Positions 7,425 to 64,000 of a DNA stretch of 64,000 nt are shown here, in pieces. The DNA is taken from assembly GCF_044647545.1 (NCBI RefSeq), contig NZ_CP172818.1; one strand, written 5' to 3'. Each line of letters opens with the position of its first letter. Position 1 is the stretch's first letter. This stretch comes from Escherichia coli. Lineage in GTDB: Bacteria; Pseudomonadota; Gammaproteobacteria; Enterobacterales; Enterobacteriaceae. Made by a program: the position numbers and the translations under genes. The notes under the pieces are model-generated. The model ran no database searches. It had not been told where the DNA came from and worked only from the letters and a program-made list of their open reading frames with translations.

Positions 7425-7433
7425 GAGGTCTTT

Positions 7434-12504: not shown

Positions 12505-12548
12505 ATACAGGGGGAAGGCATTCCCCCAGAATAATACAAGGAACAATA

Positions 12549-13454: not shown

Positions 13455-13503
13455 TAATGGGTTAAATTGCCGGATGCGGCGCGAGCGCTAAATCGGCATA
13501 CAT

Positions 13504-14502
13504 TTATTTCAACGACATATGCGTAGCAACGGTAATATTTTGTGGTGACGGTTTTCCGGCAATTAGCTGGAATAATAACTCGCAGCTTTGTTGACCTAAC
13601 TCCTGCGTCGGAACATCGATGCCGCCTGGTGCAGGCGTTAATATAAACGACAGCGTTTCATTACTATAACCCACCACCGCTAACTGCTGCGGAATAGCAA
13701 TGTTTTTCTCTGCCGCCGCACGATAAATACTCATTAATTTCAGGCTGTCAGTAGCAAACACTGCCTCAGGCAACGGTGACTGGCTTAATAATTCCCGTGC
13801 GGCTTGCAAGGCTGTTTCATGGGTATAACCGCCGTCAACAATCCATTCATCACGCACTGCAATATTATGCGTAGCCAGGCTTTGCTTATAACCATTTACC
13901 CGATCCACTGAAACATGAACATCAAGCGGCGCATGCAGGCAGGCAATATTCTTATGCCCGCTTTCAATTAACGCATTGGTCAGCGCAATACTGTCGCCAT
14001 AATTATCGGTATCGACGGAATAAACATGGCTGTATTGACCTTCAACTTTGCCAATTACCACTACCGGGATCTCGTATTTGTCGAGTTGTGCAAAGAAGGA
14101 TTCATCGGCAGGCGAACTTAGCATAATAATGCCTTTAATCATTTTCTGCTTAATTTTGCTTTCGCATTTTTGCAGATCTTCTGCCGGATTGTGCGACGTT
14201 TGTAATATCACGTCGAAACCTTCTTCTTCCGCTTTGGCGGTGATGGCATGCAAAACTTCAGAGAAAAACGGATTACCCGCCGTAGTTTTGGTCGAACGGG
14301 TAGAAATCACCATAATGGCATCAAAACCCGAAGAGGTCAGCGCGCGTGCCAGCTTGTTTGGTTGATACTGTAATTCTTCAATGGCCCGTAACACTTTTTC
14401 GCGCGCTTCCGGGGAGATATTGGTTTGCTTATTCAGCACGCGTGATACGGTGGATTTTGATACGCCTGCAACCCTGGCAATATCATAAATAGTAGGGGAC
14501 AT
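13504..14502 (-). CDS. ycjW: LacI-family transcriptional repressor
   Basis: 332 aa ORF, N-terminal HTH ([24 protein letters not shown]), periplasmic-binding-like C-domain. Confidence 0.9.
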
Positions 14503-14656
14503 AGGTCAGGAACTCCGTCCGAACGTGAATGTTGCACATCTTATGGAGTTCGCCCGTCGATGACAACACGGGCAGTTGATAATCAATGGCCTGGCCCCCA
14601 CATTCATATTCTTACGAATGATTTTTTTCTGGTCTTCAGAGCAGCACAGGACAGCA

Positions 14657-16054
14657 ATGAAGCGACTTAAAAATGAACTTAATGCGCTGGTGAATCGGGG
14701 TGTCGACAGACATCTGCGCCTCGCCGTAACCGGACTTAGCCGCAGCGGCAAAACGGCGTTTATCACTGCGATGGTCAATCAGTTGCTCAATATTCACGCC
14801 GGAGCAAGGTTGCCGCTGTTAAGCGCGGTGCGTGAAGAACGGCTGCTGGGCGTAAAACGCATTCCCCAGCGTGACTTTGGCATTCCGCGCTTCACCTATG
14901 ATGAAGGGCTGGCGCAGTTATATGGCGATCCACCCGCCTGGCCAACGCCAACGCGCGGCGTCAGCGAAATTCGCCTGGCGCTACGTTTTAAATCGAACGA
15001 TTCGCTGCTACGCCACTTTAAGGATACCTCCACGCTGTATCTGGAGATTGTGGATTATCCCGGCGAATGGTTGCTCGACCTGCCGATGCTGGCGCAGGAC
15101 TATTTAAGCTGGTCGCGCCAGATGACGGGCTTACTTAATGGTCAGCGCGGCGAATGGTCGGCGAAATGGCGAATGATGTGCGAAGGGCTGGACCCGCTAG
15201 CGCCTGCCGACGAAAACCGGCTGGCAGACATTGCCGCCGCGTGGACCGATTATCTCCACCACTGTAAACAGCAGGGGCTGCACTTTATTCAGCCTGGGCG
15301 CTTTGTCTTGCCGGGAGATATGGCAGGTGCGCCCGCGCTGCAATTCTTCCCGTGGCCAGATGTTGATGCCTGGGGCGAGTCCAAACTGGCGCAGGCCGAT
15401 AAGCACACCAATGCCGGAATGTTGCGCGAGCGGTTTAATTATTACTGCGAGAAAGTGGTGAAGGGGTTCTATAAGAATCATTTTCTGCGCTTTGACCGCC
15501 AGATTGTGCTGGTGGACTGCCTGCAACCTCTCAACAGTGGGCCACAGGCATTTAATGATATGCGTCTGGCGCTGACGCAACTGATGCAAAGTTTTCACTA
15601 CGGGCAGCGAACCCTGTTCCGGCGTTTGTTTTCACCGGTTATCGATAAGCTATTGTTTGCTGCCACTAAAGCAGACCATGTGACCATCGATCAGCACGCC
15701 AATATGGTTTCATTACTGCAACAACTGATTCAGGATGCCTGGCAAAATGCGGCGTTCGAAGGGATCAGCATGGACTGCCTGGGGCTGGCGTCAGTTCAGG
15801 CGACCACCAGCGGCATTATTGATGTTAACGGTGAGAAAATCCCGGCGCTGCGCGGTAATCGACTCAGCGATGGCGCACCGCTCACTGTTTATCCTGGCGA
15901 AGTTCCCGCTCGTTTGCCCGGTCAGGCGTTCTGGGATAAGCAAGGCTTCCAGTTTGAGGCGTTTCGTCCGCAGGTGATGGATGTTGACAAACCGCTGCCG
16001 CATATTCGCCTTGATGCTGCGCTGGAATTTTTAATAGGAGATAAATTGCGATGA
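14657..16054 (+). CDS. ycjX: conserved P-loop NTPase of unknown function (YcjX family)
   Basis: ORF 14576-16054; likely ATG at 14657 (MKRLKNEL...); Walker A-like GLSRSGKT; stop overlaps ycjF start (ATGA). Confidence 0.85.
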
Positions 16055-17112
16055 CCGAACCGTTAAAACCACGTATTGATTTCGACGGTCCGCTGGATGT
16101 CGATCAGAATCCTGAATTCAGGGCGCAGCAGACCTTTGACGAAAATCAGGCGCAAAATTTTGCCCCGGCCACGCTCGACGAAGCGCAGGAAGAAGAGGGG
16201 CAAGTTGAAGCGGTGATGGACGCAGCGTTACGTCCGAAACGCAGCCTGTGGCGCAAAATGGTGATGGGCGGGCTGGCTCTGTTTGGCGCAAGCGTTGTCG
16301 GGCAGGGGGTACAGTGGACAATGAATGCCTGGCAAACCCAGGACTGGGTAGCGCTGGGTGGATGTGCCGCAGGGGCATTGATTATCGGCGCTGGCGTAGG
16401 TTCTGTGGTAACAGAGTGGCGGCGCTTATGGCGCTTGCGACAGCGCGCCCATGAACGCGACGAAGCGCGTGATTTATTGCACAGCCATGGCACCGGCAAA
16501 GGCCGCGCATTTTGCGAAAAACTGGCGCAGCAGGCGGGCATCGATCAGTCACATCCGGCGCTGCAACGCTGGTATGCCTCAATCCATGAAACGCAAAACG
16601 ACCGTGAAGTGGTCAGTTTGTATGCGCATTTGGTCCAGCCAGTTTTAGATGCCCAGGCACGGCGCGAAATCAGCCGTTCGGCAGCGGAATCAACATTGAT
16701 GATTGCGGTCAGCCCGCTGGCGCTGGTGGATATGGCATTTATCGCCTGGCGCAATCTGCGTTTGATTAATCGCATCGCCACGCTGTATGGCATTGAACTG
16801 GGGTATTACAGCCGTTTGCGCCTGTTCAAGCTGGTATTGCTGAATATCGCTTTCGCCGGAGCCAGCGAACTGGTGCGCGAAGTGGGGATGGACTGGATGT
16901 CGCAAGATCTCGCTGCTCGTTTGTCTACCCGCGCAGCTCAGGGGATTGGTGCAGGACTTCTGACGGCACGACTGGGGATTAAAGCTATGGAGCTTTGCCG
17001 CCCGCTGCCGTGGATTGACGATGACAAGCCACGCCTCGGGGATTTCCGTCGTCAGCTTATCGGTCAGGTGAAAGAAACTCTGCAAAAAGGCAAAACGCCC
17101 AGCGAAAAATAA
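16051..17112 (+). CDS. ycjF: conserved inner-membrane protein of unknown function (YcjF family)
   Basis: 353 aa ORF with hydrophobic segments; translationally coupled to ycjX. Confidence 0.85.
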
Positions 17113-17171
17113 TGCAATATCGGGTGCTGACCGGATATCTTTACGCCGAAGTGCCCGTTTTTCCGTCTTTG

Positions 17172-17189
17172 TGTCAATGATTGTTGACA
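17172..17189 (+). promoter_or_regulatory. TyrR-box-like palindrome upstream of tyrR (candidate autoregulatory site)
   Basis: tgtcaa-tgattg-ttgaca, fits TGTAAA-N6-TTTACA class, about 70 bp upstream of tyrR start. Confidence 0.5.
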
Positions 17190-17259
17190 GAAACCTTCCT
17201 GCTATTCAAATAGTGTCATATCATCATATTAATTGTTCTTTTTTCAGGTGAAGGTTCCC

Positions 17260-18801
17260 ATGCGTCTGGAAGTCTTTTGTGAAGACCGACTCGGTCTGAC
17301 CCGCGAATTACTCGATCTACTCGTGCTAAGAGGCATTGATTTACGCGGTATTGAGATTGATCCCATTGGGCGAATCTACCTCAATTTTGCTGAACTGGAG
17401 TTTGAGAGTTTCAGCAGTCTGATGGCCGAAATACGCCGTATTGCAGGTGTTACCGATGTGCGTACTGTCCCGTGGATGCCTTCCGAACGTGAGCATCTGG
17501 CGTTGAGCGCGTTACTGGAGGCATTGCCTGAACCTGTGCTCTCTGTCGATATGAAAAGCAAAGTGGATATGGCGAACCCGGCGAGCTGTCAGCTTTTTGG
17601 GCAAAAATTGGATCGCCTGCGCAACCATACCGCCGCGCAATTGATTAACGGCTTTAATTTTTTACGCTGGCTGGAAAGCGAACCGCAAGATTCGCATAAC
17701 GAGCATGTCGTTATTAATGGGCAGAATTTCCTGATGGAGATTACGCCTGTTTATCTTCAGGATGAAAATGATCAACACGTCCTGACCGGTGCGGTGGTGA
17801 TGCTGCGATCAACGATTCGTATGGGCCGTCAGTTGCAAAATGTCGCTGCCCAGGACGTCAGCGCCTTTAGTCAAATTGTCGCCGTCAGCCCGAAAATGAA
17901 GCATGTTGTCGAACAGGCGCAGAAACTGGCGATGCTAAGCGCGCCACTGCTGATTACGGGTGATACCGGCACCGGAAAAGATCTCTTTGCCTACGCCTGT
18001 CATCAGGCAAGCCCCAGAGCGAGCAAACCTTACCTGGCGCTGAACTGTGCGTCTATACCGGAAGATGCGGTCGAGAGTGAACTGTTTGGTCATGCTCCGG
18101 AAGGGAAGAAAGGGTTCTTTGAGCAGGCGAACGGTGGTTCGGTGCTGTTGGATGAAATAGGGGAAATGTCACCACGGATGCAGGCGAAATTACTGCGTTT
18201 CCTTAATGATGGCACCTTCCGTCGGGTTGGCGAAGACCATGAGGTGCATGTCGATGTGCGGGTGATTTGTGCTACGCAGAAGAATCTGGTCGAACTGGTG
18301 CAAAAAGGCGTGTTCCGTGAAGATCTCTATTATCGTCTGAACGTGTTGACGCTCAATCTGCCGCCGCTACGTGACTGTCCGCAGGACATCATGCCGTTAA
18401 CCGAGCTGTTCGTCGCCCGCTTTGCCGACGAGCAGGGCGTGCCGCGTCCGAAACTGGCCGCTGATCTGAATACTGTACTTACGCGTTATGCGTGGCCGGG
18501 AAATGTGCGGCAGTTAAAGAACGCTATCTATCGTGCACTGACACAACTGGACGGTTATGAGCTGCGTCCACAGGATATTTTGTTGCCGGATTATGACGCC
18601 GCAACGGTAGCCGTGGGCGAAGATGCGATGGAAGGTTCGCTGGACGAAATCACCAGCCGTTTTGAACGCTCGGTATTAACCCAGCTTTATCGCAATTATC
18701 CCAGCACGCGCAAACTGGCAAAACGTCTCGGCGTTTCACATACCGCGATTGCCAATAAGTTGCGGGAATATGGTCTGAGTCAGAAGAAGAACGAAGAGTA
18801 A
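17260..18801 (+). CDS. tyrR: sigma-54-family-type transcriptional regulator TyrR
   Basis: ORF 17233-18801; likely ATG at 17260 (MRLEVFCEDRLGLT...); AAA+ domain with GDTGTGKDLFA, C-terminal HTH. Confidence 0.9.
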   Translation: MRLEVFCEDRLGLTRELLDLLVLRGIDLRGIEIDPIGRIYLNFAELEFESFSSLMAEIRRIAGVTDVRTVPWMPSEREHLALSALLEALPEPVLSVDMKSKVDMANPASCQLFGQKLDRLRNHTAAQLINGFNFLRWLESEPQDSHNEHVVINGQNFLMEITPVYLQDENDQHVLTGAVVMLRSTIRMGRQLQNVAAQDVSAFSQIVAVSPKMKHVVEQAQKLAMLSAPLLITGDTGTGKDLFAYACHQASPRASKPYLALNCASIPEDAVESELFGHAPEGKKGFFEQANGGSVLLDEIGEMSPRMQAKLLRFLNDGTFRRVGEDHEVHVDVRVICATQKNLVELVQKGVFREDLYYRLNVLTLNLPPLRDCPQDIMPLTELFVARFADEQGVPRPKLAADLNTVLTRYAWPGNVRQLKNAIYRALTQLDGYELRPQDILLPDYDAATVAVGEDAMEGSLDEITSRFERSVLTQLYRNYPSTRKLAKRLGVSHTAIANKLREYGLSQKKNEE

Positions 18802-18807
18802 GCGTGA

Positions 18808-18840
18808 ATATGCCTGATGGTGCAACACCATCAGGCATAT
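18808..18840. terminator. bidirectional intrinsic terminator between convergent tyrR and tpx
   Basis: Perfect 15-bp inverted repeat atatgcctgatggtg-caa-caccatcaggcatat between the two stop codons. Confidence 0.55.
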
Positions 18841-18844
18841 TAAC

Positions 18845-19351
18845 TTATGCTTTCAGTACAGCCAGAGCTGCTTCGTAATCCGGCTCGGTGGTGATTTCAT
18901 CCACCAGCTGGCTGAAAATCACATTGTCATTTTCATCAATAACCACAACGGCACGCGCTGCCAGACCTTTCAGTGGGCCATCAGCAATTGCCACACCGTA
19001 GGCTTGCAGGAATTCAGCGTTACGGAAAGTGGAGAGGGTGATAACGTTGTTCAGACCTTCTGCGCCGCAGAAACGAGACTGGGCGAATGGCAGATCGGCA
19101 GAGATACACAGCACAACGGTGTTGTCGATCTCGGTTGCCAGTTGGTTAAACTTACGTACTGATGCGGCGCAAACACCGGTATCAATACTCGGGAAAATGT
19201 TCAGCACTTTGCGTTTACCCGCAAACTGACCGAGGGTGACGTCAGACAGATCTTTTGCCACGAGAGTAAAAGTCTGCGCTTTGCTACCCGCCTGCGGGAT
19301 GGAATTGGCGACTGTAACCGGGTTGCCCTGGAAATGAACGGTTTGTGACAT
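18845..19351 (-). CDS. tpx: thiol peroxidase
   Basis: 168 aa ORF, peroxiredoxin family with catalytic Cys context (DTGVCAASV); matches recalled Tpx. Confidence 0.9.
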
Positions 19352-19469
19352 GATTATCTTTCCTGTTTACATATAGTTAACGTCACACCTAGTTTATGCT
19401 AACTGTCAATAACACAGCAAACGCTATTTGCGCTTAATCCGCAGACCACCGCGACAACAAGGAGTAAAG

Positions 19470-20435
19470 ATGAGAACCGTTAAGGTATTTGAGGAGGCCT
19501 GGCCCTTACATACCCCGTTTGTGATTGCCCGGGGAAGTCGCAGTGAAGCGCGCGTGGTGGTGGTTGAACTGGAAGAAGATGGCGTCAAAGGTACGGGCGA
19601 ATGTACGCCTTATCCGCGCTATGGCGAAAGTGATGCCTCGGTAATGGCGCAAATTATGAGCGTCGTGCCGCAATTAGAGAAAGGGCTGACACGGGAGGAG
19701 TTGCAAAAAATCCTCCCTGCCGGCGCAGCACGTAATGCGCTGGATTGTGCATTGTGGGATCTGGCGGCGCGAAAACAGCAGCAATCGCTGGCTGATTTGA
19801 TCGGCATAACGCTTCCCGAGACAGTCACCACGGCACAGACGATAGTCATCGGTACGCCTGATCAGATGGCCAATAGTGCATCAACACTCTGGCAGGCAGG
19901 CGCGAAATTACTGAAAGTGAAGCTGGATAACCATCTTATCAGTGAGCGGATGGTGGCAATTCGCACAGCTGTGCCCGATGCGACGCTGATCGTTGATGCA
20001 AATGAATCCTGGCGTGCAGAAGGGTTGGCGGCGCGTTGCCAGCTATTGGCAGATTTAGGCGTTGCGATGCTTGAACAACCGCTTTCTGCGCAGGACGATG
20101 CGGCGCTGGAGAATTTTATTCATCCGTTACCGATTTGTGCTGATGAAAGTTGTCATACTCGTAGCAATCTGAAGGCGCTGAAAGGGCGCTATGAGATGGT
20201 TAACATTAAGCTTGATAAAACCGGTGGTCTGACGGAAGCGCTGGCGCTGGCGACTGAAGCGCGTGCACAAGGTTTTCGTCTGATGCTGGGCTGCATGTTG
20301 TGTACCTCTCGGGCCATTAGCGCCGCTTTACCGCTGGTGCCGCAGGTCAGTTTCGCCGATCTTGACGGACCGACCTGGCTGGCGGTAGATGTGGAACCGG
20401 CGCTTCAGTTCACAACGGGCGAATTGCATCTTTAG
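19470..20435 (+). CDS. ycjG: L-Ala-D/L-Glu epimerase (enolase superfamily)
   Basis: ORF 19428-20435; likely ATG at 19470 (MRTVKVFEEAWPL...); enolase-superfamily features. Confidence 0.85.
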   Translation: MRTVKVFEEAWPLHTPFVIARGSRSEARVVVVELEEDGVKGTGECTPYPRYGESDASVMAQIMSVVPQLEKGLTREELQKILPAGAARNALDCALWDLAARKQQQSLADLIGITLPETVTTAQTIVIGTPDQMANSASTLWQAGAKLLKVKLDNHLISERMVAIRTAVPDATLIVDANESWRAEGLAARCQLLADLGVAMLEQPLSAQDDAALENFIHPLPICADESCHTRSNLKALKGRYEMVNIKLDKTGGLTEALALATEARAQGFRLMLGCMLCTSRAISAALPLVPQVSFADLDGPTWLAVDVEPALQFTTGELHL

Positions 20436-21138
20436 GATGCCAGCGCAGCAAGTTTGCCATCGCAAAGAGATATTTTTCGCTGGCTTCGTCGGAGGAGATG
20501 GGCGGAAACTCTGCGGTGATGCAATGCAGGTTGAGATCCGCACACCAACTGCCGAAAGAGCCAGGCGTTTCATAACCGACGCTGGTTACCAGTGGCAATT
20601 CAAACGCCTGGGCCAGCCATTCACCTAATTCGCTGTGTCTGGGGTCTTCAATACAGGCCAGTGGATCGTGGAATGAGACCACCCAGGCAGGTTGAATGCG
20701 GTGTATAAGCTGGCACAGCGCCTGAGTTTCAGGTTCGGAGCCAGGTTTGTCACCTGTCAGTAAAACGACATCACGTTCTTCAGCGGTGCTGTTCCAGCGA
20801 TAAACTGTTTCACCTTCCTTCCAGTTCGCTGCCGGAAAGTTTCGGTTTAAATCCACACCATTAGCATTGGCCCGTAACCCTAACTGGCAGCCGTCAGGAT
20901 TCACACACAGCACCACATGATGGCGGCGCAAAGACGGTGTCAAAGTCCGCAGAGCACAGGAGAGCGTGACGATCGAAGAGTTTTCATCACCGTGAGTGCC
21001 AGCCAGAATCAAACCACTTTCGTGACTGGCGGCTGGGGCCGGAAACCAGATCAAAGGCGCGCCCAATAATGAACGTCCGTAATGTTCTGTACCGGGCGGA
21101 AATGCGCCGCGTTCGGCGCGTGGGCGAGTTACGGTCAT
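20410..21138 (-). CDS. mpaA: murein peptide amidase A (gamma-D-Glu-Dap amidase, M14-like)
   Basis: ORF 20410-21198; likely start MTVTRPRAERG at 21138; zinc carboxypeptidase-like HGDEN motif. Confidence 0.85.
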   Translation of the reverse strand: MTVTRPRAERGAFPPGTEHYGRSLLGAPLIWFPAPAASHESGLILAGTHGDENSSIVTLSCALRTLTPSLRRHHVVLCVNPDGCQLGLRANANGVDLNRNFPAANWKEGETVYRWNSTAEERDVVLLTGDKPGSEPETQALCQLIHRIQPAWVVSFHDPLACIEDPRHSELGEWLAQAFELPLVTSVGYETPGSFGSWCADLNLHCITAEFPPISSDEASEKYLFAMANLLRWHPKDAIRPL

Positions 21139-21318
21139 GATCGTCTCTGGTTCAGGAAGTATTACAGGCAGTGTTGTGCAAATTTTGCGGATTATCAAAT
21201 CCTTTTCTTCAACGCTATGTTATCGATCTTTTCACTTTTTTGCCGGAAGTTGTTTGCATTTCTTTAAGGCGAAACAAATAATTACGCATCAATTTTAATG
21301 TCGGTTAGAGGGAAACTT

Positions 21319-24014: not shown

Positions 24015-24253
24015 TGTTTTATCAGGCTCCTCCAGATAATTGTCGTCATGCCGGAAACCCCTGGCGGGACTATTTTACCGCGACAATTCATTCAGATCAT
24101 CAATAGTCAGGGAAGGAAGTAGCAACTCTAACTAATCAATACGTTGATTGTAAATCCAGCTAAGAGGTGAGGTTTTCAGAGCAGACAACGGTGAAATGTC
24201 ATGGTATTGTTACGTTTAGGTAACAAGAAATTTGTCTGCACAAGGATTACATC

Positions 24254-27135: not shown

Positions 27136-28668
27136 TTAAGACAAACGTGGGTAAATCCCCGGACCTATCGGCAGACCAACAAGATACCACGCCAGCAACA
27201 TCAGCAGCCATACCACCAAAAAGATAAGTGGATAGGGCAAAACTAACGAATAGTAAGTACCCAGTTTCGCGTCTGGTTTGTAACGTTGCAGGAATCCAAG
27301 AAACAGTGGAACAAAAGGAGATACCGGCGCTAAAGGCAATACGGATGAGTCGGCAATACGAAAGAGGATTTGCGCAAATGCCGGGTGAAAGCCAAGTAGC
27401 ATAAACATTGGTACGAAAATGGGGGCCAGAATCGACCAGATTGCGGAACCGCTGGCGATAAACATGCATAAGAAAGAGGAAAGCAACGCCAGACCGACAA
27501 ACGCCGGGATGCCGCTAAGCCCTGAACTTTCCAGTATATCGGTCAGCCCCACGGCGATGAATTTCCCCATGTTGCTCCAGTTAAACATGGCGACAAACTG
27601 GGCGAGGGGAAAAACCATCACGATAAATCCCGCCATCTCTTTCATCGGTTCAATCATTAAATGCGGTAAATCCGCCTGACGTCGAATTGTGCGGGTAGCG
27701 ATGCCATAAGCCAGCGAGACCACAAAGAAAAAAAGAATGATCAGTGGCACGATACCTTTAATAAAGGGTGATGGCATCACGGTGTGATTAATCGGATCGC
27801 GCAATATCCCGTTTTCCGGGATCACCATCAGCGCAATCGCAGCAATAAAAAGTAGCGATACGACACCTGCTATGTGTAAACCAAAACGCTGACTTTCGGT
27901 CAATGTCTGCAGTTTCTCATCGCTGTTTCCCTGCCATTGACCTAAACGTGGCTCAATGATTTTGTCGGTTATCAGGCCGCCAACAATCGTCAGTACGACT
28001 ACGGAGCTGGCCATAAAATACCAGTTATCAATTACACTGACGTGCATTTGCGGATTGAACGCAGCCGCAGCCTCCGTGCTGATCCCCGACAGCAACACGT
28101 CGGTTGTGACAATCAGTAAATTAGCCGTAAAGCCGCAACCTACGCCTGCAATGGCGGCAAGTAAACCTGCAACTGGATGCCTGCCCACCGCCAGAAAAAT
28201 TAGCGCACCCATCGGTGGCATGATCACTAACGCCGCATCGGAAGAAATGTGGCTGAAAAAAGCAATAAACAGCACCATATAACTGGCGTAGCGGGCATTC
28301 ACATGCGATGCCATTTTAACCATCAACGCTGGCAGTAAGCCGACGCGCTCCGCCAGACCGGCACCTAAAACCAGCGCCAGGATCGCGCCAAGTGGAGCAA
28401 AACCGCTAAAGTTTTTAATAACATTGGGTAAAAACCAGTGTAATCCTTCCACACTGAGCAGGTTTTTCACGACCACTGGCGTACCATCGGTCGGGTTTTT
28501 CGCACTGACGCCAAAGGCCGACAAAATTGCCGTCGTCACCATGAGTACGATAATCAAATAGATAAAGAGCAAAAAAGGATGGGGAACCTTGTTACCAATT
28601 CTTTCGACCCAGCCATAGAGCTTCCCGGATTGGGAGGACGACGGTATGGATGACATACTCATGGGCAT
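27136..28668 (-). CDS. abgT: p-aminobenzoyl-glutamate transporter (AbgT family)
   Basis: 510 aa polytopic membrane ORF; operon with abgA/abgB. Confidence 0.85.
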
Positions 28669-37901: not shown

Positions 37902-38837
37902 TTATTTCACTTCAACCACATTCAGTCGTAACTCATCCAACTGATTTTCATCTTCTTCAGGCTGCCAACCCGCCGGTTGTAGAGGGATCTCTTCGCGATC
38001 AAACGCCAGATCACCCCCGTTAACCACTTCAGAACCGTGGGTAATGCCTTTGAAATCGAACAGGTTGGTATCGCACAGATGCGACGGCACCACATTCTGC
38101 ATCGCGCTGAACATCGTCTCGATACGCCCCGGATAACGTTTATCCCAGTCACGCAACATGTCAGCAATCACCTGACGTTGCAGGTTAGGCTGTGAACCGC
38201 ACAGGTTGCACGGAATAATCGGGAACGCTTTTGCATCGGCAAAGCGCTGAATATCTTTCTCGCGGCAGTAGGCCAGCGGACGAATAACGATATGTTTGCC
38301 ATCATCGCTCATCAGTTTCGGAGGCATACCTTTCATCTTGCCGCCGTAGAACATATTTAAGAACAACGTTTGCAGGATATCGTCACGATGGTGACCCAGC
38401 GCGATCTTCGTCGCTCCCAGTTCCGTTGCGGTACGGTAAAGAATTCCGCGACGAAGACGAGAACACAGTGAGCAAGTGGTTTTGCCCTCCGGAATCTTCT
38501 CTTTCACGATACCGTAAGTGTTCTCTTCCACAATCTTGTACTCAACGCCCAGTTTTTCAAGATACTCGGGCAGAACGTGTTCCGGGAAGCCCGGTTGTTT
38601 TTGATCGAGGTTGACAGCCACCAGCGAAAAATTGATTGGCGCGCTTTGCTGCAAATTGCGCAGAATCTCCAGCATGGTATAGCTGTCTTTACCCCCTGAG
38701 AGGCAAACCATGATGCGATCGCCTTCTTCAATCATATTGAAGTCAGCAATGGCTTCGCCCACATTACGACGCAGACGTTTTTGTAATTTGTTCAGGTTGT
38801 ATTGTTCTTTCTTACTAATTTCTTGATTTTCTTGCAT
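37902..38837 (-). CDS. ttcA: tRNA 2-thiocytidine synthase TtcA
   Basis: 311 aa ORF with PP-loop SGGKDS motif and paired CxxC motifs; its 5' end overlaps the prophage attachment repeat. Confidence 0.85.
38788..38830. repeat. prophage attachment-site direct repeat (attL copy)
   Basis: ttgttcaggttgtattgttctttcttactaatttcttgatttt, identical to 61887-61929. Confidence 0.75.
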
Positions 38838-38888: not shown

Positions 38889-40119
38889 CTACGATAACCG
38901 CGCATTCAACATGGCTATCTGTTCGTCGTTCATGTCATCAATCCACATACCGTAAATTTCATACACCATCTGCGCAGTTTCATGCCCCATTTGGCTGGCT
39001 ATAAATGCCGGGTTCGCTCCTGCCGTCAACAGCCAGCAGGCAAAAGTATGCCGCGTATGGTACGGATTACGGCGGCGAATACCAGCACGTTTTACTGCTG
39101 CATTCCACCTTGCCCCCAAACTGCTTACCGAGTAATAAGGTTTTTGTTTTCCGTTACACACCCTGGGCATGAAAACAAAATGCAGTTTTTGCTTTTCGGT
39201 TCTGCATACTGCCGATAATAAAAGGTGACGACTTTTGCGATGATGCCCGGTCAGTTTGTATTGCTCCTTCAGTGCTTCAAGAGCAGGCTGCAGTAGTGTT
39301 ACTGTTCGGATCCCGGCATTTGTTTTTGGGGGACCGAACATATCGAGCCCTCGTCAGGTTTCTTCTGACATTCACTATTCCCTTTTCGAGATCCACATCC
39401 TCCCACGCCAGAGCTGCCAGTTCCCCGTGACGAAGTCCTGAGTAAACGGCAAAGTTCCACAAGTTCTCGCTATCTCCTTTTTCACTTTCCATTAATGCAT
39501 TGAATTCTGTTTTAGATAACGGATCAGGCTTTATTCTGTTCGCTGTAATTTTTTTACTCCTTCAAATGGTTTGGTTGATATAAATCCGACTGATACGCAA
39601 AACGCAACAGCGAACAGAGCAAGGCAATATCGTATCAACTGTGCGCACGGTTCTTCCTTTTTTGTTGGATCTTGGATTATCCAGGTAAAGCGTTTCTCCA
39701 TGCAGCAGTTCATTCCGGTAGTTTAAGATATCGCTATAACGAATATGTGATATCGGGGTACTTTCACAAATTATTATTCTGAGTGTTTTTAATTGTGATT
39801 TCGTTTTCTTCATTGTGTTTGTTGTTAACTCTGTCTCTTTAATTTTTGTCCAGATATCACAAAGCTCTCCGAACGTTTTTATGACTCTCGTTGTCACCAT
39901 TTTTGCCCCAGTGCTGGACTGGGGAAAACGTCTTAAATACTCAAATTCACCGGAGTTTATTTCATGAACTATCAGCGCTCTTAAATTTCCGGCCTTTTTA
40001 ATATTACTGTTTGTAATCTCCCAGCCTTTTAATGTTTCCCGACATCGTTTTCCTCGAAACATGAACCAGATGCGAATGTATCTACCTCTAATCTCGACAC
40101 CTGTTGGTAATTTAGACAT
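38889..40119 (-). pseudogene. intR: prophage tyrosine integrase, reading frame broken by at least two frameshifts
   Basis: Three consecutive minus-strand ORF fragments (39562-40119, 39277-39492, 38889-39341) together resemble one tyrosine recombinase (MSKLPTGVEIRGRYIRIWF...; ...LRHGELAALAWEDVD...; ...RHTFACWLLTAGANPAFIASQMGH...EIYGMW). Confidence 0.75.
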
Positions 40120-40120: not shown

Positions 40121-40336
40121 TCATGAGTCTTTGATAAACTGATTTATCTTTGGATAGTTGTACCAGATAATCCCTCGTTTGCTGTCTGGCTTACCTAAAG
40201 GAGATACTCGTTTGAAGTGGAAGCCCTCCACCCAACAGTTCTGGCGGTATGCTTCAATTTGTCTGGCCCCCAGACCAGTGCGAAGCATCAGGCCGTATTC
40301 AACCATCCACTCTTCATTAAAGATTACTTGTGCCAT
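40121..40336 (-). CDS. xisR: excisionase-like protein
   Basis: ORF 40121-40360; likely 71-aa product from [15 protein letters not shown]...; immediately upstream of the integrase as in lambdoid int-xis modules. Confidence 0.7.
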
Positions 40337-40867: not shown

Positions 40868-41677
40868 TTATTCCTCTGAATTATCGATTACACTGTATTC
40901 CCCGGTTAATACAGAGGAATCTGCAGGATCGATTGTCAGTGGTTCCTTTTCATCCATTGATACTGCACGCTGGATCTCAATTGATACGGGCAAATATTTG
41001 AACAGGCGACGAATAGCCGTTTTCTTTGCCATTTCTTCCCAGTGAGTTACCCACGGCCCGTTATTACCAGCTTTACTCAGGCTGCGCACCAGCTCAATCT
41101 GTTTGCGCGTCATAACTTCAAACTGAGTACCTCCGTCTTTCAGTCTTGCGACAGCATAGACGTGGGTAACCGGGGCATCTTCGTTTTCTCCCGGGCGGTG
41201 TATTAACTTTTCATCAAGGCCAAATTCGAAGCTAAACTCGTCACCTTCACGGACAACACGGGCTGACAGGCTGGCGATTTGACCAGAACGGCGAGCCAGA
41301 TCAATCATGCCGCGATAGCCAATGATTAGCTGAACGTTCTTTTTACCGCTCTTTTCGTTTTTATTACCAAAAGGCAGTAAATATGCATGACCGAGGGCGC
41401 TACCTGGCTCAAGTCCGAGCTGTGAACACTGTACGATCGCACTGACAAAACTCATAGTGTCACAGTTTCCTAACGCCGGAACTTTACGAATTTCTGTGGT
41501 GGCGATACGGATCATACGTTCAGCCGTCATATGGCGTGGAAGAGCTGCTGCCAGTTGCTCTTTCATTGATGGCTGGTTAATAAAACTAATCACGTCGCTA
41601 TTTTTAACTGCTGCTGGTGCACGGTTTCCCTGAGTTTTTTGCAGATCGGCTTTTGCGATTGGTGGTTGCTTAGTCAT
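40868..41677 (-). CDS. recT: single-strand annealing recombinase RecT
   Basis: ORF 40868-41734; likely start [16 protein letters not shown] at 41677; matches recalled RecT. Confidence 0.9.
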
Positions 41678-44312
41678 TTGCATATTCCTTAGCCCAGCGG
41701 GGCAGTGATAATGTCTTAATAGCTGGCCATTCATCGGTATTCAGGCAGTCAGACAGGGTTCGCAGATTGCGGTGATATTCCTGTTGACCTGCCAGTTTTG
41801 CTTCTTCGCCCATCATGAAAATTTCAACCGGATAACGTCCGCATTCAATAGTTGTGCTGGCAACCAGAAAAACGAAAGTTGGCTGCACTCCAAACTGTGC
41901 TTCATAACCGTCACTGTAGAATGCATCCTGAACGTGATAGCGGTAGTCGTAATAAGCGGTTTTGAATCGTTGAATATCCGCCGTAGTTTTCACGTCCATG
42001 ATCCAGTGAAATTCAGGGATAATTTTGTCCGGACGGCACCGACACAAAATTCCTGTTTCAGGATCTTCCCAGTAAATTGATGATTCAGCGTGTCCGGCGC
42101 TTTCAACAAGCCATTGCCCCAGCGGCAAAGCCATAACGCTTTGATACATGAGTTCAATTTTCCGGCCTTCTTCCGCAGTGATAACCGTTTTTCCTGTGCT
42201 TGCGCATTCCATCAGAAACGCTTTCTCTTCTTCTTTTCCGGCGTTTGTACGGCGGTTAAATTCAGGTGCTACGATAAAGCGGTTACTGAATTCTTCCGGT
42301 TCAAGTACCCGGCAGTGGAAAGCAGTTCCTAAATCGAGCGTTTTTGTCTTTGTGGTGTCCACGGGGGCATTTTTACGCCACAAATATAGTGCCGGAGTAT
42401 CAGCAATGTCATCGAGCTGAGACTTACTGATACCGGGACCCGCGTGGTAATTCTCATTCGAAATTCCGTAATAAATACCTGGCTCTATGTCTTCTACGAT
42501 TAAGGGATCTGACGCCTCGCCAGTTTCACTATCGCTGGCATGATGCTGATTGCTGCCAGTGTTCTCCTTGTGCTGATGCGCAGTGCCTTCCATTTCCTCC
42601 AGATCATTTTTCTGAACTTCAGGCTGATTCTCTCCATCGAATATTTCCTGGTATGTTGCGTCACCCATCACCGCACCACAATCAGGGCAGTTGCCGCCAC
42701 CGCTCTGACCGCAGGCGGTGCAGATCTTTTCCGGTTCCTGTTGCACTACTGGTTCAGGTTGTTTCGTTTCTGGCTCGTTTTGTTGCGTATTTGGGCTGTT
42801 TTGTTCCGCTTTCTGGTCGTTCTGTTCCGTTTCTTGCTGGTTCTGGTTCACAGAATCGCGGGTCTGGATCCCCTTAATCCATTTCGGATCATTCGGGTCG
42901 CTAATCCCTTCAACAAATTCACCACGTGATACTGCAAGCAGTTCATCGTCATCGACAGGATTTTTTGATGGAATGTTTTTCCGGGCTTCATGGAGTTCTG
43001 CCCGCAGTTCCTGATATTTCGCATCAACAGAATTTACCTGTGACTGAGCATCCAGCGGCTGCGTGTCCTGATGATGTTCAGTTGCGTCCGGTTCCATTGT
43101 TTCAGCCTCTCCCTGTTCAACTGCCGTTGTTCCAGATGGTTGCGGTTTTTCTTCATCATCCTGTTTTCCTTCTTCTGTTACTCGCTGCGGCATCGGGGCA
43201 GAGGAGCGACCGCAGGCAATATCCACGATTTCCGGATCAGGGTTGGCATGATCGGTTTCAGTCAGTACTTTGTTCAGATATTCAGTGACGTGCGCGGGGA
43301 TGACCTCGATCCCAATTGGTGCTTCTTTTACGGACGCAACCACGATGGCGCGGGAATAATCCAGCCCGCCAGGCATGGTGATGAATTTGTCGCGGAAAAC
43401 AGAAAAGGGCGGTTTATTTTCAGCGATAATTTCCTCAATGCGTTTAGCGTGTGCCGGATGAAGGTTATAGATGTCCAGATCCATTGAACGGGCCAGTACG
43501 CCAGTGGCTACGTCGCGCGCCAGTGACGTCAGATCGTGTACGAAACCTTCGCCGCGATCGGTGAGGTTTCCGCCGCCAGCATTAGCACCGGAAGCCGTGC
43601 GAGTGATGTGTGAAACACGATTACCCTTCATCCACTCTTTTGTCAGCAGTCCTCGATCGGTGTAGTCAGCGTTCAGGTATGCTTCGAAAAAAGCAGTTAT
43701 CAGTCCCAGGTTTGAATTACCAGGATTAGGGAAAACTTTGTCAGTGTCACGAACCAGTTTGTGGAGTTCGCGAATTTCCAGCGGGTCGAGCAGGCTGGTT
43801 TTGTGGGAAACAGCCAGGGCAGTAACAGCCGGTAGTTCTTCAGCCCGAGCAATGTGTAATGCCTGGAGTCCGTCGCGTGAAACGTGCGTTACCGGTTTTT
43901 CGCTGCCGTGTTGAGCAAGCCAACGAATGGGCAGTTCCTGGCCAGAAATTGGGAGTAGCATATTCTCCTCAATCTCAGTCATGTCTTCGCCGTTGACGTT
44001 GGTATTGCCTTGATAGTGAGCGTTGTCTGGTGCTGCTCCCGGTTTTAGTTCCCATGTCATGGAGTCTTTGCTGAGTTGATAGCGTTCACTCCAGGTAAAA
44101 TCGATCTCACCTTCAGCGGGCAGGTCATTAACGACAGGAAAATTCGTGGCAACAGCTTTAAAATAGCTGCTCAGTTTTTTACCTGACTTAACGATCAGGT
44201 AGTCCAGAGTGGCACAGGTCGATTCAAAATCGTTGCTTGCCCACAGGACGACGTCAGGTTCACCGGATGATTTTTTCGCTTTCCGTAACAGGAAGAGTGG
44301 TTTTGTGCTCAT
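41670..44312 (-). CDS. recE: exonuclease VIII (RecE)
   Basis: 880 aa ORF beginning [24 protein letters not shown]; Q/E/P-rich central linker; overlaps recT start by 8 nt. Confidence 0.9.
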
Positions 44313-49655: not shown

Positions 49656-50199
49656 TTTTTACCGGGAGAAAAATTTAATGGAGACTGTTTTTGACGCACT
49701 GAAAGCAATGGGAAAAGCCACATCCATAGAACTTGCTGCGCGACTTGATATCAGTCGTGAAGAAGTGCTGAACGAACTATGGGAACTGAAAAAGGCTGGT
49801 TTTGTTGATAAAAGCGCGTACACCTGGCGTGTGGCTGATAACAATGTTCAGCAGGAACAGCCAGCGCAGGCAGAACTGCCGGAAGAAATCACCACAGCAA
49901 CAGTAGCGAAAATCTCAGAGTGCGATTTAACCGCGACGATTGAACAACGAGGACCACAAACGGCTGATGAGCTGGCTACATTGTTTGGTACCACATCACG
50001 CAAAGTGGCTTCAACGCTGGCAATGGCAATCAGCAAAGGTCGTCTGATTCGCGTAAATCAGGGCGGTAAATTTCGTTACTGCATACCGGGCGATAATTTA
50101 CCAGCAGAGCCGAAAGCAGCATCGGTATCTCCGCTCTGGTTATCTGCATCATCGTCTGCCTGTCATGGGCTGTTAATCATTACCGTGATAACGCCATGA
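49627..50199 (+). CDS. ydaW: prophage protein YdaW, probably a remnant; 3' end runs out of frame over the Rz N-terminal coding region
   Basis: 190 aa ORF; N-terminal winged-helix-like region; its last ~33 codons overlap sequence that encodes an Rz transmembrane segment in another frame. Confidence 0.5.
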
Positions 50200-50570
50200 C
50201 CTACAAAGAGCAGCGCGATAAAAAAGTCAGTGAGCTGAAGCAGGCGACTGCCACCATTACTGACATGCAGCAGCGCCAGCGTACTGCTGATGCACTTGAT
50301 GCTAAATACACGAAGGAGTTAGCTGATGCGAAAGCTGAAAATGATGCTCTGCGTGATGATGTTGCCGCTGGTCGTCGTCGGTTGCACATCAAAGCAGTCT
50401 GTCAGTCAGTGCGTGAAGCCACCACCGCCTCCGGCGTGGATAATGCAGCCTCCCCCCGACTGGCAGACACCGCTGAACGGGATTATTTCACCCTCCGGGA
50501 ACGACTGGTAATGATGCAGGCCCAACTTGAAGGTGCTCAGCAATACATAACCGAGCAGTGTTTAAAGTAA
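50097..50570 (+). pseudogene. rzpR: Rz-like i-spanin lacking a start codon
   Basis: Frame open from 50097; encodes ...[34 protein letters not shown]... (Rz-like TM helix plus coiled-coil domain) but the first ATG (50196) lies after the TM segment. Confidence 0.65.
50326..50511 (+). CDS. rzoR: Rz1-like o-spanin lipoprotein embedded in the +1 frame of rzpR
   Basis: 61 aa ORF with lipobox ([11 protein letters not shown]) and proline-rich tail ([18 protein letters not shown]), fully nested in rzpR. Confidence 0.7.
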
Positions 50571-55720: not shown

Positions 55721-55935
55721 CAAGGGGAAAACGCACGATGTGCTGACCGGAAGTGATGACGATCGCCACAGCAACACGTCTCTGGCGTGGGGAGCTGGCG
55801 TGCAGTTTAACCCGACCGAATCCGTGGCCATTGACATTGCTTATGAAGGCTCCGGCAGTGGCGACTGGCGCACTGACGGTTTCATCGTGGGTGTCGGTTA
55901 TAAATTCTGATTAGCCAGGTAACACAGTGTTATGA

Positions 55936-55963
55936 CAGCCCGCCGGTTCAGGCGGGCTTTTTT
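55936..55963 (+). terminator. intrinsic terminator downstream of lomR
   Basis: agcccgcc-ggttca-ggcgggct followed by tttttt. Confidence 0.45.
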
Positions 55964-55968
55964 GTGGA

Positions 55969-58900
55969 GTGGATATGGCAGCAGTAAAAATCTCAGGTGT
56001 GCTGAAAGATGGTGCGGGAAAACCAATACAGAACTGCACTATTCAACTGAGGGCAAAGCGTAACAGCACCACGGTACTGGTGAACACGGTGGCCTCTGAA
56101 AATCCGGATGAAGCCGGGCGTTACAGCATGGATGTTGAGTATGGCCAGTACAGCGTCACCCTGCTGGTTGAAGGTTTTCCGCCTTCACATGCCGGAACCA
56201 TTACCGTCTATGAAGGTTCCAGACCAGGTACGCTGAATGATTTTCTCGGTGCCATGACGGAAGATGATGTCATGCCGGAGGCATTGCGTCGTTTTGAGGC
56301 AATGGTGGAAGAAGCGGCACGCAACGCGTCCGCGGTGGCACAGAACACGGCAGCCGCGAAGAAGTCAGCCAGTGATGCCAGCACATCAGCCCGTGAGGCG
56401 GCAACCCATGCGGCTGATGCTGCGGACTCAGCACGCGCAGCCAGCACGTCAGCCGGACAGGCCGCGTCGTCGGCTCAGTCAGCGTCTTCCAGCGCAGGAA
56501 CGGCATCAACAAAGGCCACTGAAGCATCAAAAAGTGCTGCCGCTGCAGAGTCCTCAAAAAGCGCGGCGGCCACCAGTGCCGGTGCGGCGAAAACGTCAGA
56601 AACGAATGCTTCAGCGTCACTACAATCAGCAGCCACATCTGCATCCACCGCGACCACGAAGGCATCAGAAGCTGCGACCTCGGCCCGGGATGCGGCGGCC
56701 TCAAAAGAAGCGGCAAAATCATCAGAAACGAACGCATCATCAAGCGCCAGTAGTGCAGCTTCCTCGGCAACGGCGGCAGGAAATTCCGCGAAGGCGGCAA
56801 AAACGTCCGAGACGAACGCCAGGTCTTCTGAAACGGCAGCGGGACAGAGCGCCTCGGCTGCGGCAGGCTCAAAAACAGCGGCTGCGTCGTCTGCCAGTGC
56901 AGCGTCAACAAGTGCCGGGCAGGCCTCAGCCAGTGCCACCGCCGCCGGAAAATCGGCAGAAAGCGCCGCATCGTCTGCTTCAACAGCCACAACGAAGGCT
57001 GGCGAAGCCACTGAACAGGCCAGCGCAGCAGCGAGGTCTGCTTCCGCAGCGAAGACATCCGAAACGAACGCGAAAGCGTCGGAAACAAGCGCAGAATCCT
57101 CAAAAACGGCTGCCGCATCGTCAGCCAGTTCGGCGGCGTCATCGGCATCATCGGCGTCTGCTTCAAAAGATGAGGCGACCAGACAAGCGTCAGCAGCGAA
57201 GAGCAGCGCCACGACGGCATCCACGAAGGCGACAGAGGCTGCTGGCAGTGCGACGGCGGCAGCTCAGAGCAAAAGTACGGCGGAATCCGCGGCAACGCGC
57301 GCCGAGACAGCAGCTAAACGGGCAGAGGATATTGCATCCGCCGTGGCGCTTGAGGATGCAAGTACGACGAAAAAGGGGATAGTACAGCTCAGCAGTGCGA
57401 CCAACAGTACGTCTGAAACGCTGGCGGCAACGCCAAAGGCAGTAAAATCAGCCTATGACAATGCAGAGAAACGTCTGCAGAAAGACCAGAACGGCGCTGA
57501 TATACCCGATAAGGGATGCTTCCTGAACAACATTAACGCGGTCAGTAAAACAGACTTTGCTGATAAGCGTGGTATGCGTTATGTGCGGGTTAACGCTCCT
57601 GCAGGTGCAACATCTGGAAAATATTACCCTGTTGTTGTTATGCGTTCTGCTGGCTCAGTAAGCGAACTGGCATCAAGAGTCATTATCACCACGGCAACGC
57701 GAACCGCAGGCGATCCGATGAATAACTGCGAGTTTAACGGATTTGTTATGCCTGGTGGCTGGACTGACAGGGGGCGTTATGCTTATGGCATGTTCTGGCA
57801 ATATCAAAACAATGAACGAGCCATTCACTCAATAATGATGAGTAATAAGGGCGATGATTTGCGCTCTGTGTTCTATGTTGATGGCGCTGCTTTCCCTGTT
57901 TTTGCGTTTATTGAAGATGGCCTGTCAATATCCGCACCTGGTGCTGATCTCGTTGTTAATGATACGACCTATAAGTTTGGGGCAACAAATCCGGCGACTG
58001 AATGTATCGCGGCGGACGTTATCCTTGATTTTAAGAGTGGGCGTGGTTTTTATGAGTCTCATTCGTTAATCGTTAACGATAACTTGTCGTGCAAAAAACT
58101 TTTTGCCACAGACGAAATTGTAGCGCGTGGTGGTAATCAGATTCGAATGATAGGTGGGGAGTATGGTGCATTATGGCGTAATGATGGCGCTAAAACTTAC
58201 CTGCTGCTTACCAATCAAGGTGATGTTTATGGTGGCTGGAATACATTAAGACCGTTTGCTATTGATAACGCAACCGGCGAACTGGTTATTGGAACCAAAC
58301 TGTCCGCAAGTCTGAACGGTAATGCATTAACAGCAACAAAGCTGCAAACGCCAAGACGGGTTTCTGGTGTTGAGTTTGATGGTTCCAAAGATATTACTTT
58401 AACCGCCGCGCATGTGGCTGCTTTTGCCAGAAGGGCAACGGATACATATGCCGATGCGGATGGTGGCGTTCCATGGAATGCCGAATCTGGCGCTTACAAT
58501 GTCACCCGCTCTGGCGACAGCTATATTCTGGTTAACTTCTATACCGGAGTCGGAAGTTGCCGGACCCTGCAGATGAAGGCGCATTACAGAAATGGTGGTC
58601 TGTTCTACCGTTCTTCAAGAGACGGTTATGGTTTTGAGGAAGACTGGGCAGAAGTTTATACCTCGAAAAATCTTCCACCAGAAAGCTACCCAGTCGGCGC
58701 ACCAATCCCGTGGCCATCAGATACGCCACCTGCAGGTTATGCAATCATGCAGGGGCAGACGTTTGATAAGGCAGCATATCCGAAACTGGCTATTGCCTAT
58801 CCTTCTGGTGTTATTCCAGATATGCGCGGCTGGACAATCAAGGGCAAACCCGCCAGTGGTCGGGCCGTATTGTCTCAGGAACAGGATGGCATTAAATCGC

Positions 58901-59340
58901 ACACCCACAGTGCCAGCGCATCCAGTACGGATTTGGGTACGAAAACCACATCGTCGTTTGATTACGGTACTAAATCAACGAATAACACAGGTGCACATAC
59001 CCACAATGTATCTGGTACTGCAAATAGTGCTGGCGCACATACTCATACCGTTCCATTAAGGAGACCAAACAGTGGCGGTATGAATTTCGACTGGCTGGAT
59101 GGTTCATCAAGTGGCACGGTGGTGGGGAATGGAACTGTGCCTTCTTCTGGCGCACATACCCACTCAGTATCAGGTACCGCTACAAGTGCTGGGGCACATG
59201 CACACACTGTTGGTATTGGCGCTCATACGCACTCTGTTAAGATTGGTTCACATGGACACACCATCACCGTTAACGCTGCTGGTAACGCGGAAAACACCGT
59301 TAAAAACATCGCATTTAATTATATTGTGAGGCTTGCATAA
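55969..59340 (+). CDS. stfR: side tail fibre protein
   Basis: 1123 aa ORF (GTG at 55969; ATG at 55975); long Ala/Ser/Thr-rich low-complexity central region and C-terminal His-rich repeats (GAHTHxVSGTA). Confidence 0.85.
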
Positions 59341-59915
59341 TGGCATTCAGAATGAGTGAACAATCACGTACCGTAAAAATTTATAACCTGCTGGCCGGAA
59401 CTAATGAGTTTATTGGTGAAGGTGACGCATATATTCCACCTCATACAGGGCTGCCAGCTAATTCTACAGATATCGCCCCACCGGAAATTCCTGCTGGCTT
59501 TGTGGCAGTTTTTAACAGTGAAAATGAATCGTGGAATATTGTTGAAGACCATCGTGGTAAAACGGTCTATGACGTGGCGTCGGGGGACGCATTGTTTATT
59601 TCTGAACTCGGACCGCTACCAGAGAATGTCACCTGGTTGTCGCCAGCAGGGGAGTATCAGAAGTGGGACGGCGTATCCTGGGTGAATGATGAGGAAGCAG
59701 AAAAACTGTTTCGGATACGGGAAGCGGAAGAAAGAAAAAGCAACCTGATGCAGGTAGCCAGTGAGCATATTGCGCCGCTTCAGGATGCTGCAGATCTGGA
59801 AATTGCAACGGAGGAAGAAACCCCGTTGCTGGAAGCATGGAAAAAGTATCGGGTATTGCTGAACCGTGTTGATACGTCAACTGCACAGGATATTGAATGG
59901 CCAGCACTGCCGTAG
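59340..59915 (+). CDS. tfaR: tail fibre assembly protein
   Basis: 191 aa ORF whose ATG overlaps the stfR stop (TAATG); Tfa family. Confidence 0.85.
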
Positions 59916-61882: not shown

Positions 61883-61936
61883 TTACTTGTTCAGGTTGTA
61901 TTGTTCTTTCTTACTAATTTCTTGATTTTGCGACAT
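61883..61936 (-). pseudogene. ttcC: displaced N-terminal fragment of ttcA (17 codons)
   Basis: Minus-strand ATG at 61934-61936 encodes [17 protein letters not shown] then stop; parallels ttcA N-terminus [17 protein letters not shown]. Confidence 0.5.
61887..61929. repeat. prophage attachment-site direct repeat (attR copy)
   Basis: Identical 43-bp copy of 38788-38830. Confidence 0.75.
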
Positions 61937-62111
61937 TTAAAAGCGACTCAATTCGTTATATGGCATCAGAAGAGTATGCGTCATGCCGGAACGCCCAGCA
62001 TAAGAAATCTGATATAAAAACTGTGGCGTGTATGGTACGGATTAGAGGGGAAAATGTCAGCACATTTGCGAAATGAATCAAAAAGCCCGCAGCAATGTGC
62101 GGGCGTTAGTG

Positions 62112-62627
<516 letters not shown>

Positions 62628-62686
62628 TTAGATCAAAGGAGGAAGAATAAGCAGAAAAAGCCCGCCATAACAGCGGGCAGGAGGAT

Positions 62687-63820
62687 TTAGAACTGATAAA
62701 CCAGACCTAAAGCGACAATATCATCGGTAGAGATGCCGTTGGCAGCGTAGAAGCTGTCATCTTCATCCAACAGGTTGATTTTATAGTCAACGTAGGTGGA
62801 CATATTTTTGTTGAAATAGTAAGTCGCGCCAACATCGGCGTATTTAACCAGATCTTTATCATCAACACCTGCCGGGTTGTCTGCACCACCGGCAGCGTGA
62901 AGGTCACGGCCTTTAGACATCAGGAAAGAGACTGCCGGACGCAGACCAAAATCAAACTGGTACTGTGCAGTAACTTCAAAGTTCTGGGTTTTGTTCGCAA
63001 CTGCATAATCGCTGTCGCCAAACGGGGTCATGTTACGCGTTTCTGAATACATGGTTGCCAGGTAAATATTGTTAGCATCGTATTTTAGCCCAGCAGTCCA
63101 CGCGTCTGCTTTATCACCACCTGCCGCAGTATGGTTAACCTGGTCATTGGTGCGGTCAGATGAGGTGTATGCCGCACCAGCGCTAAAGCCCATGCCTAAA
63201 TCATATGTTGTGGAAAGACCCCAGCCGTCACCGTTTTCATGGCGAACATCACGTCCGTTGTTGGTGCCTTCCTGACCATTACTGGCACCTTCGTTGTTAC
63301 CTTGATACTGCACCGCGAAGTTCAGACCATTTACCAGACCGAAGAAATCAGTATTACGATAAGTCGCGACGCCGTTGGCACGACCAGTCATAAAGTTGTC
63401 TGCATTGGTATAAGAGTCACCGCCAAATTCAGGCAGCATATCGGTCCAGCCTTCGATGTCGTACATTACGCCATAATTACGTCCGTAATCGAAAGAACCG
63501 TAATCTGCAAATTTCAGTCCGGCAAATGCCAGACGGGTCCATGACTGGTTTGTTGAAGATTCAGTGTTGTTTGCCTGAATATTGTATTCCCATTGACCGT
63601 AGCCAGTGAGTTGATCGTTAATTTGGGTTTCGCCTTTAAAACCCAGACGCGCATAGCTCTGGTCGCCATCTTTCGCTGAATTATCAGAAAAATAATGCAG
63701 GCCATCAACTTTGCCATACAGATCCAATTTGTTGCCGTCTTTATTATAAACTTCGGCTGCATGTGCAGCACCTGCGGCGAGCAGGGCAGGAATTAAAAGT
63801 GCCAGTACTTTGCTTTTCAT
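62687..63820 (-). CDS. ompN: outer membrane porin OmpN (OmpC/OmpF family)
   Basis: 377 aa ORF with signal peptide ([21 protein letters not shown]) and C-terminal ...LGLVYQF. Confidence 0.85.
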
Positions 63821-64000
63821 TGAATAAATCCTTTAGTTATTTTATTTGCCTTTTATCCCCATTTCGGGGAGTGAAAACATCCTAAAGGAGAAGTTCAGTT
63901 AGCCGATAAATATCATTTGTTACGCCTTAAGTAAAACCTTAATCAAATAATTCTACGGAAATGATAATAAGTTTGGTGAATATATTGTTGGCGACATATA

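Follow-up and report, generated by a model that had tools for sequence, protein, structure and literature searches.

The integrase gene intR of the cryptic lambdoid prophage Rac is broken into three open reading frames (ORFs) in the E. coli record analyzed here, and all of its differences from the K-12 gene are confined to a single patch of 429 bp (39205–39633). The patch stems from one local event, whether in the cell or in the computer. Sequence comparisons make it quite probable that this event was an error, confined to one record, in the local consensus or assembly, and we infer that it took place during sequencing or assembly and not in the cell. Such an error is favored because the changes are private to the record, their spectrum is biased toward deletions in homopolymers, the ratio of transitions to transversions is odd, and the same record carries other private deletions. 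The breakage of intR is in itself ordinary and presents nothing new, and the gene is the well-studied Rac integrase.

The Rac integrase gene and its fragments

The window, i.e., the whole 64-kb stretch of DNA that was analyzed, runs from ycjN to ydbK and contains Rac at positions 38831–61886. The region 38889–40119 on the minus strand was identified as intR, the homolog of K-12 b1345, on the basis of megablast, the MG1655 annotation, and tblastn of the K-12 region proteins against the window. The megablast search matched over 1,800 E. coli chromosomes that carry the annotation "intR: tyrosine-type recombinase/integrase | xisR". The gene extends from the ATG codon at 40119–40117 to the stop codon at 38891–38889 and comprises 1231 nt, vs. 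1236 nt (411 aa) in K-12; the alignment of the two genes has 98.4% identity, with flanks that are 100% identical. With the K-12 IntR protein as a query, tblastn returned a broken match in the window. The neighbors of intR, both also on the minus strand, are ttcA (37902–38837), the host gene with the Rac attachment site, which is intact according to the ORFs and tblastn, and xisR (40124–40336), an intact excisionase gene whose protein is 100% identical to that of K-12 by tblastn. The preliminary description had recognized here the integrase of a ttcA-inserted prophage, with a coding region traceable from end to end and an intact version of 411 aa; the K-12 alignment and Pfam identify this integrase as Rac IntR, and the predicted length is that of the K-12 protein.

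The ORF listing and a three-frame translation divide intR into three minus-strand ORFs, which are 185, 71, and 150 aa long. The first of them (39562–40119, WP_400165234.1) begins with authentic IntR (residues 1–162), which comprises the Arm DNA-binding domain together with a portion of the SAM-like core-binding domain, and its final 23 aa are out of frame; the corresponding Pfam matches are PF12167 at residues 5–69 (E = 1e-26) and PF14659 at residues 82–139. The second ORF (39277–39492, WP_400165233.1), which carries GLRHGELAALAWEDVD, is approximately equivalent to IntR residues 211–257, among which is the arginine motif of box I (LRHGELAAL), and then continues into a tail that is out of frame; it matches model positions 25–62 of PF00589. 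The third ORF (38889–39341, WP_400165232.1) corresponds approximately to IntR residues 261–411, including the HxxR and Tyr motifs (HTRHTFACW and the C-terminal YEIYG), and aligns with model positions 65–165 of PF00589; it also holds an internal scrambled stretch of 9 aa between a net −2 and a −1 deletion. The integrase had been described as split into three frame-shifted fragments, with its coding sequence spread over three frames. Three ORFs do exist, and the homology passes through all three frames, but the first two ORFs share one frame, with the third in another, and the breakage involves six indel events, not two.

In K-12 the whole Pfam architecture is found on the single chain of IntR, where PF00589 is matched at model positions 6–165. 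In the window, the N-terminal Arm DNA-binding domain (PF12167) characteristic of these tyrosine recombinases is present as in K-12 IntR; the box I arginine, the HxxR motif, and the tyrosine are not found together on one polypeptide, as stop codons separate the pieces. Joined up, the pieces would, by their domain content, constitute a member of the Arm-type tyrosine integrases.

Composition of the patch and its absence from other genomes

Outside the patch, the first 486 and the final 317 coding nucleotides of intR are 100% identical to those of K-12. Within it, the alignment to K-12 intR contains 22–23 changed columns, namely, approximately 16 substitutions and 7 indel columns (6 deleted bases and 1 inserted base). 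The indels form six frame-shifting events (−1, −1, −1, +1, −2, and −1) with a net loss of 5 nt: AA to A at 39633, GGG to GG at 39586, AAA to AA at 39539, an insertion of one base within a change of TACTT to GGGCTC at 39348, a net −2 event at 39229–39231, and GG to G at 39205. Four of the deletions thus shorten short homopolymers (AA, GGG, AAA, and GG). The deletions at 39633, 39586, and 39539 jointly restore the frame, with the K-12 codons 163–194 scrambled between them and a stop codon in this stretch.

The spectrum of these changes is unlike that of natural intR variation. Transitions and transversions occur in the patch in a ratio of 8:8, vs. 131:42 at natural intR polymorphic sites (p = 0.037), and the six indel events of the patch compare with none in natural alleles (p = 1e-6). 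In the original frame, approximately 4 of 14 substitutions are synonymous, a proportion that cannot be told apart from a random outcome. Inspection of the changed sites by eye revealed no GATC or CCWGG methylation motifs at them.

Natural variation of the gene was represented by 106 full-length intR copies from viral contigs of IMG/VR, which constitute 65 distinct alleles. None of these 65 alleles contains an indel in intR, and the base of the window is shared at just 2 of the 23 changed columns, each time in a single allele. Further, four diverse natural alleles have the K-12 base at every site changed in the patch, and the window agrees with K-12 at the sites where these alleles are polymorphic.

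The patch was likewise found in no other record searched. The stretch that includes it is held by 1,865 complete E. coli genomes, none of which matches it with an identity above 95.3%; its length is 466 nt here vs. 471 nt in the matches listed. Among approximately 15 billion proteins, each of the three fragment proteins (WP_400165234.1, WP_400165233.1, and WP_400165232.1) occurs on one contig only (4,499,902 bp), and no copy of them was found in the Logan read assemblies. Exact 21–30-mers of the patch gave no matches in GTDB representative genomes, IMG/VR, and JGI metagenomes, whereas a wild-type 21-mer used as a positive control matched 111 IMG/VR contigs. The genome CP092703.1, which has the same flank and the same attL as the window, carries an intact 411-aa intR. 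The disruptions are therefore not common to independent genomes, as those of an inherited pseudogene or a programmed frameshift would be.

Three other public assemblies (JAPXCL010000012.1, CP055158.1, and a third, L010) contain extra indels in intR relative to K-12, and no intR gene was called in the first two of them. In CP055158.1, 36 gap openings are scattered along the whole locus (10.9 kb), and the record looks like a noisy long-read assembly. These intR indels demonstrate that noisy records of the locus exist.

The rest of Rac and its chromosomal context

The patch stands out against a prophage that is otherwise close to that of K-12. A total of 18,887 bp of Rac falls into long blocks with zero differences from MG1655, intergenic DNA included; the segment 39634–42502 lies wholly inside such blocks, and the remaining 807 nt of intR show no differences from K-12. 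Zero differences in 18.9 kb mean that the real divergence time is approximately zero. Given the 95% upper bound on Rac divergence, at most 0.07 changes are expected in the patch, vs. approximately 16 events seen, and their clustering has a Poisson probability of about 1e-32 and a scan probability of about 1.5e-13.

The gene content and order are those of the K-12-type Rac (intR-xisR-rcbA-ralR-recT-recE ... trkG ... stfR-tfaR-pinR, with IS5 in lomR), and most of the K-12 Rac proteins, all of which were used as tblastn queries, have matches with 100% identity. This includes the proteins from xisR to ydaV, RecE excepted. The recE gene (41673–44312) is intact and encodes 880 aa, compared with 866 aa for K-12, with an in-frame length difference of 39 nt; its variable linker (42503–42944) is highly divergent, with a best full-length match of 90.4% among 5,426 complete genomes. 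Dense substitution patches relative to K-12 that leave the frames unbroken are also seen at 50151–50303 (the end of ydaW and rzpR), 55739–56322 (the 5′ end of stfR), and 58725–59823 (the 3′ part of stfR and tfaR); the stfR 3′/tfaR stretch is precisely as long as in K-12 (1601 nt) but is only 88.4% identical to it. Parts of the recE linker and of the stfR 3′/tfaR patch, the two patches searched, reach at least 99% identity in some records. The recE linker, ydaW/rzpR, and stfR/tfaR patches probably reflect ordinary lambdoid mosaicism. The intR patch is unlike them in that no genome matches its stretch above the limit given above.

Rac is inserted at the 5′ end of ttcA and flanked by a perfect 43-bp direct repeat, as revealed by comparison with the lineage that lacks the prophage. 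The attL copy (38788–38830) lies inside the 5′ end of ttcA, and the attR copy (61887–61929) belongs to the ttcC remnant; the sequence found at 28485–28527 of a Rac-free genome (L019) is present at both prophage ends, and the genome of the Rac-free lineage aligns collinearly through this site. The window attL differs from that of K-12 at 38814, 38815, and 38822 and is also found in several other genomes (five, including CP092703.1). In K-12, Rac excision is mediated by IntR and XisR and, as attL and attR differ, alters the N-terminus of TtcA (Liu et al. 2015, PMC4632033). The TtcA start in the window has the form that K-12 gains only on Rac excision (PMC4632033), though Rac is present.

The flanks of the prophage (1–38830 and 61887–64000) are identical to those of the lineage without Rac (NZ_AP022098.1, in which ttcA is located beside uspF) and differ by 1–5% from K-12, while Rac itself is of the K-12 type, including IS5 in lomR. 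The combination of a K-12-type Rac with non-K-12 flanks implies that Rac may have moved recently from one background to another, that recombination may have occurred at its ends, or that the assembly may be chimeric. The possibility that the record is an early error-laden K-12 sequence was rejected, as the core genes are 1–5% different from MG1655, and a source in Shigella or another species is unneeded, as an E. coli lineage (e.g., NZ_AP022098.1) matches the core with 100% identity.

To characterize other private differences in the record, the core DNA (the two flanks, approximately 41 kb) was compared with the Rac-free lineage genome NZ_AP022098.1 and at least 11 others. Relative to this otherwise 100% identical lineage, the core has 1 substitution (12487), 5 small deletion events, and no insertions. 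A 5:1 ratio of indels to substitutions, with all indels being deletions, is typical of long-read consensus error and not of E. coli evolution. One of the deletions shortens a run of five A to four at approximately 8660 (8655–8665) and causes a frameshift in ycjT that is private to the record; the gene is intact, with five A, in 12 or more genomes of the lineage, which show 100% identity over the remainder of 2000–21000. The homopolymer frameshift in ycjT noticed by the preliminary description is thus real in the record and bears on its data quality; the frameshift is probably spurious. The other private deletions are intergenic: at 13494, a REP-like hairpin has C in place of CC; at 21231–21232, GTA is reduced to T, which was aligned as two separate 1-bp deletions; and at 24127–24128, ATTAG is reduced to T.

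The deletions at 13494, 21231, and 24127 are located at or beside structural differences from K-12, namely, a replacement of 78 bp vs. 17 bp, the 2.4-kb ymjC-pgrR segment, and the IS5F target CTAA. At 12376, in the ycjV region, the window has one extra G relative to K-12, where ycjV is annotated as a pseudogene. In the lineage genome, the same region is annotated as an intact ABC transporter ATP-binding protein, from which it follows that the K-12 ycjV is a defective copy.

Origin of the patch and comparison with known integrases

The proposed course of events would start from an ordinary K-12-type Rac intR that encodes an intact 411-aa tyrosine recombinase. Weak support or inadequate polishing in one part of the assembly would have introduced a burst of errors over 429 bp in the middle of the gene, and the resulting six small indel events and approximately 16 substitutions would have led to the annotation of three ORFs. 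The observations agree with what is expected of a consensus error, i.e., changes that are private and deletion-biased, that affect homopolymers, and that have similar indels elsewhere in the record. A few features fit this explanation less well, and we hold it to be probable rather than certain. For an otherwise nearly clean assembly to have a local error rate of 5%, something unusual must have happened, for example bridging at low coverage, polishing that failed, or a finishing read of poor quality; moreover, transversions of the C-to-G type are not a well-known hallmark of any one sequencing platform in current use. The indels come in frame-restoring sets (−1, −1, −1 and −2, −1), which could be a coincidence but is mildly odd for random error. 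Finally, the record passed RefSeq with three proteins annotated instead of a flagged pseudogene.

Were the changes real, a localized mutational catastrophe would have struck the middle of intR, for example, through error-prone repair synthesis or the integration of badly copied DNA; we regard this as less likely than an error. The integrase would then be dead, and Rac, deprived of its own excision enzyme, would be locked in place despite xisR and the perfect att repeats. It is consistent with this explanation that no encoded polypeptide combines the box I arginine with HxxR and the tyrosine and that natural inactivation of intR is known, e.g., by IS1 in JX21CE35, and the frame-restoring sets of indels hint at more than pure noise. 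However, we know of no bacterial process that gives approximately 5% changes and six indels over 429 bp and leaves the 18.9 kb around untouched; in addition, the spectrum differs from natural polymorphism, the other private deletions of the record are typical of consensus error, and no second genome has the changes. It is very improbable that the patch represents a single, extremely localized hypermutation by an undescribed process of error-prone synthesis or targeted mutagenesis that affects a recombination gene of a prophage, in which case Rac would be immobilized. Equally doubtful is gene conversion, in which a paralogous but diverged integrase, or a pseudogene of one, located elsewhere in the genome would have overwritten the middle of intR. 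The recE linker and stfR/tfaR of this Rac copy are indeed dense patches resembling natural mosaicism, but the intR patch retains the K-12 state at natural polymorphic sites and alters sites that are invariant in the 65 alleles, and searches of 5,426 E. coli genomes, GTDB representatives, IMG/VR, and metagenomes revealed no k-mer that could point to a donor. A second copy of the patch was not found in the 64-kb window.

Rac is a cryptic, defective prophage, and loss of the integrase is a common end state of such prophages, which would suit a gradual pseudogene decay in an old domesticated element. Such decay is nevertheless extremely improbable, as neutral change cannot confine itself to 429 bp (P ~1e-32) while 807 nt of intR and 18.9 kb of Rac stay unchanged; it is this absence of differences around the patch that excludes neutral decay. 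Between the two options that had been offered at the outset, decay of the integrase and indel errors of the assembly, the evidence accordingly favors the latter, and gradual decay is refuted by the zero divergence around the patch. The probability that the gene encodes a functional split or programmed-frameshift integrase, or has undergone targeted diversification of the kind carried out by diversity-generating retroelements, is close to nil. Nothing beyond the existence of three ORFs speaks for it, whereas no other genome shares the frameshifts and the first scrambled stretch contains an in-frame stop; a retroelement is contradicted by the lack of a template repeat in the 64-kb window and by substitutions that are of all types, not adenine-specific, and accompanied by indels. 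A K-12-reference-guided or chimeric assembly, which the K-12-identical Rac within non-K-12 flanks and the small scars at K-12 structural-variant junctions might suggest, is a conceivable but unnecessary assumption: CP092703.1 has the same flank, attL, and K-12-like start of Rac, the attL is present in several other genomes, and a reference-based consensus would not create the 39-nt in-frame length difference in recE.

The biological weight of the case is small, given that even a genuine inactivation would just extend the list of cryptic prophages with a nonfunctional integrase. If the changes were real, the Rac of this strain would be predicted to be unable to excise by means of its own integrase. 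The consensus error that we favor has its main consequence for data quality, as three spurious-looking RefSeq proteins (WP_400165232, WP_400165233, and WP_400165234) are assigned to one E. coli chromosome, which probably also carries the spurious ycjT frameshift. Inferences of a "locked" prophage from such records need confirmation at the read level.

The closest known system is the K-12 IntR (b1345) itself, which occupies the same place beside attL in ttcA, shares 807 identical coding nucleotides and the neighbors xisR, rcbA, ralR, recT, and recE, and has the same Pfam architecture once the pieces are joined; the K-12 ORF of 411 aa is uninterrupted, whereas in the window the central patch breaks the frame. 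The intR::IS1 allele of JX21CE35 (NZ_CP139182.1) is likewise split into an Arm-domain and a catalytic fragment, and both disruptions would lock the prophage. That allele, however, is a clean single insertion, while the window has a dense burst of point changes without a mobile element. With the noisy assemblies CP055158.1 and JAPXCL010000012.1, the window shares extra small indels and the lack of a called intact integrase; in CP055158.1 the indels are spread along the locus, whereas in the window they are packed into one 429-bp patch of nearly clean sequence.
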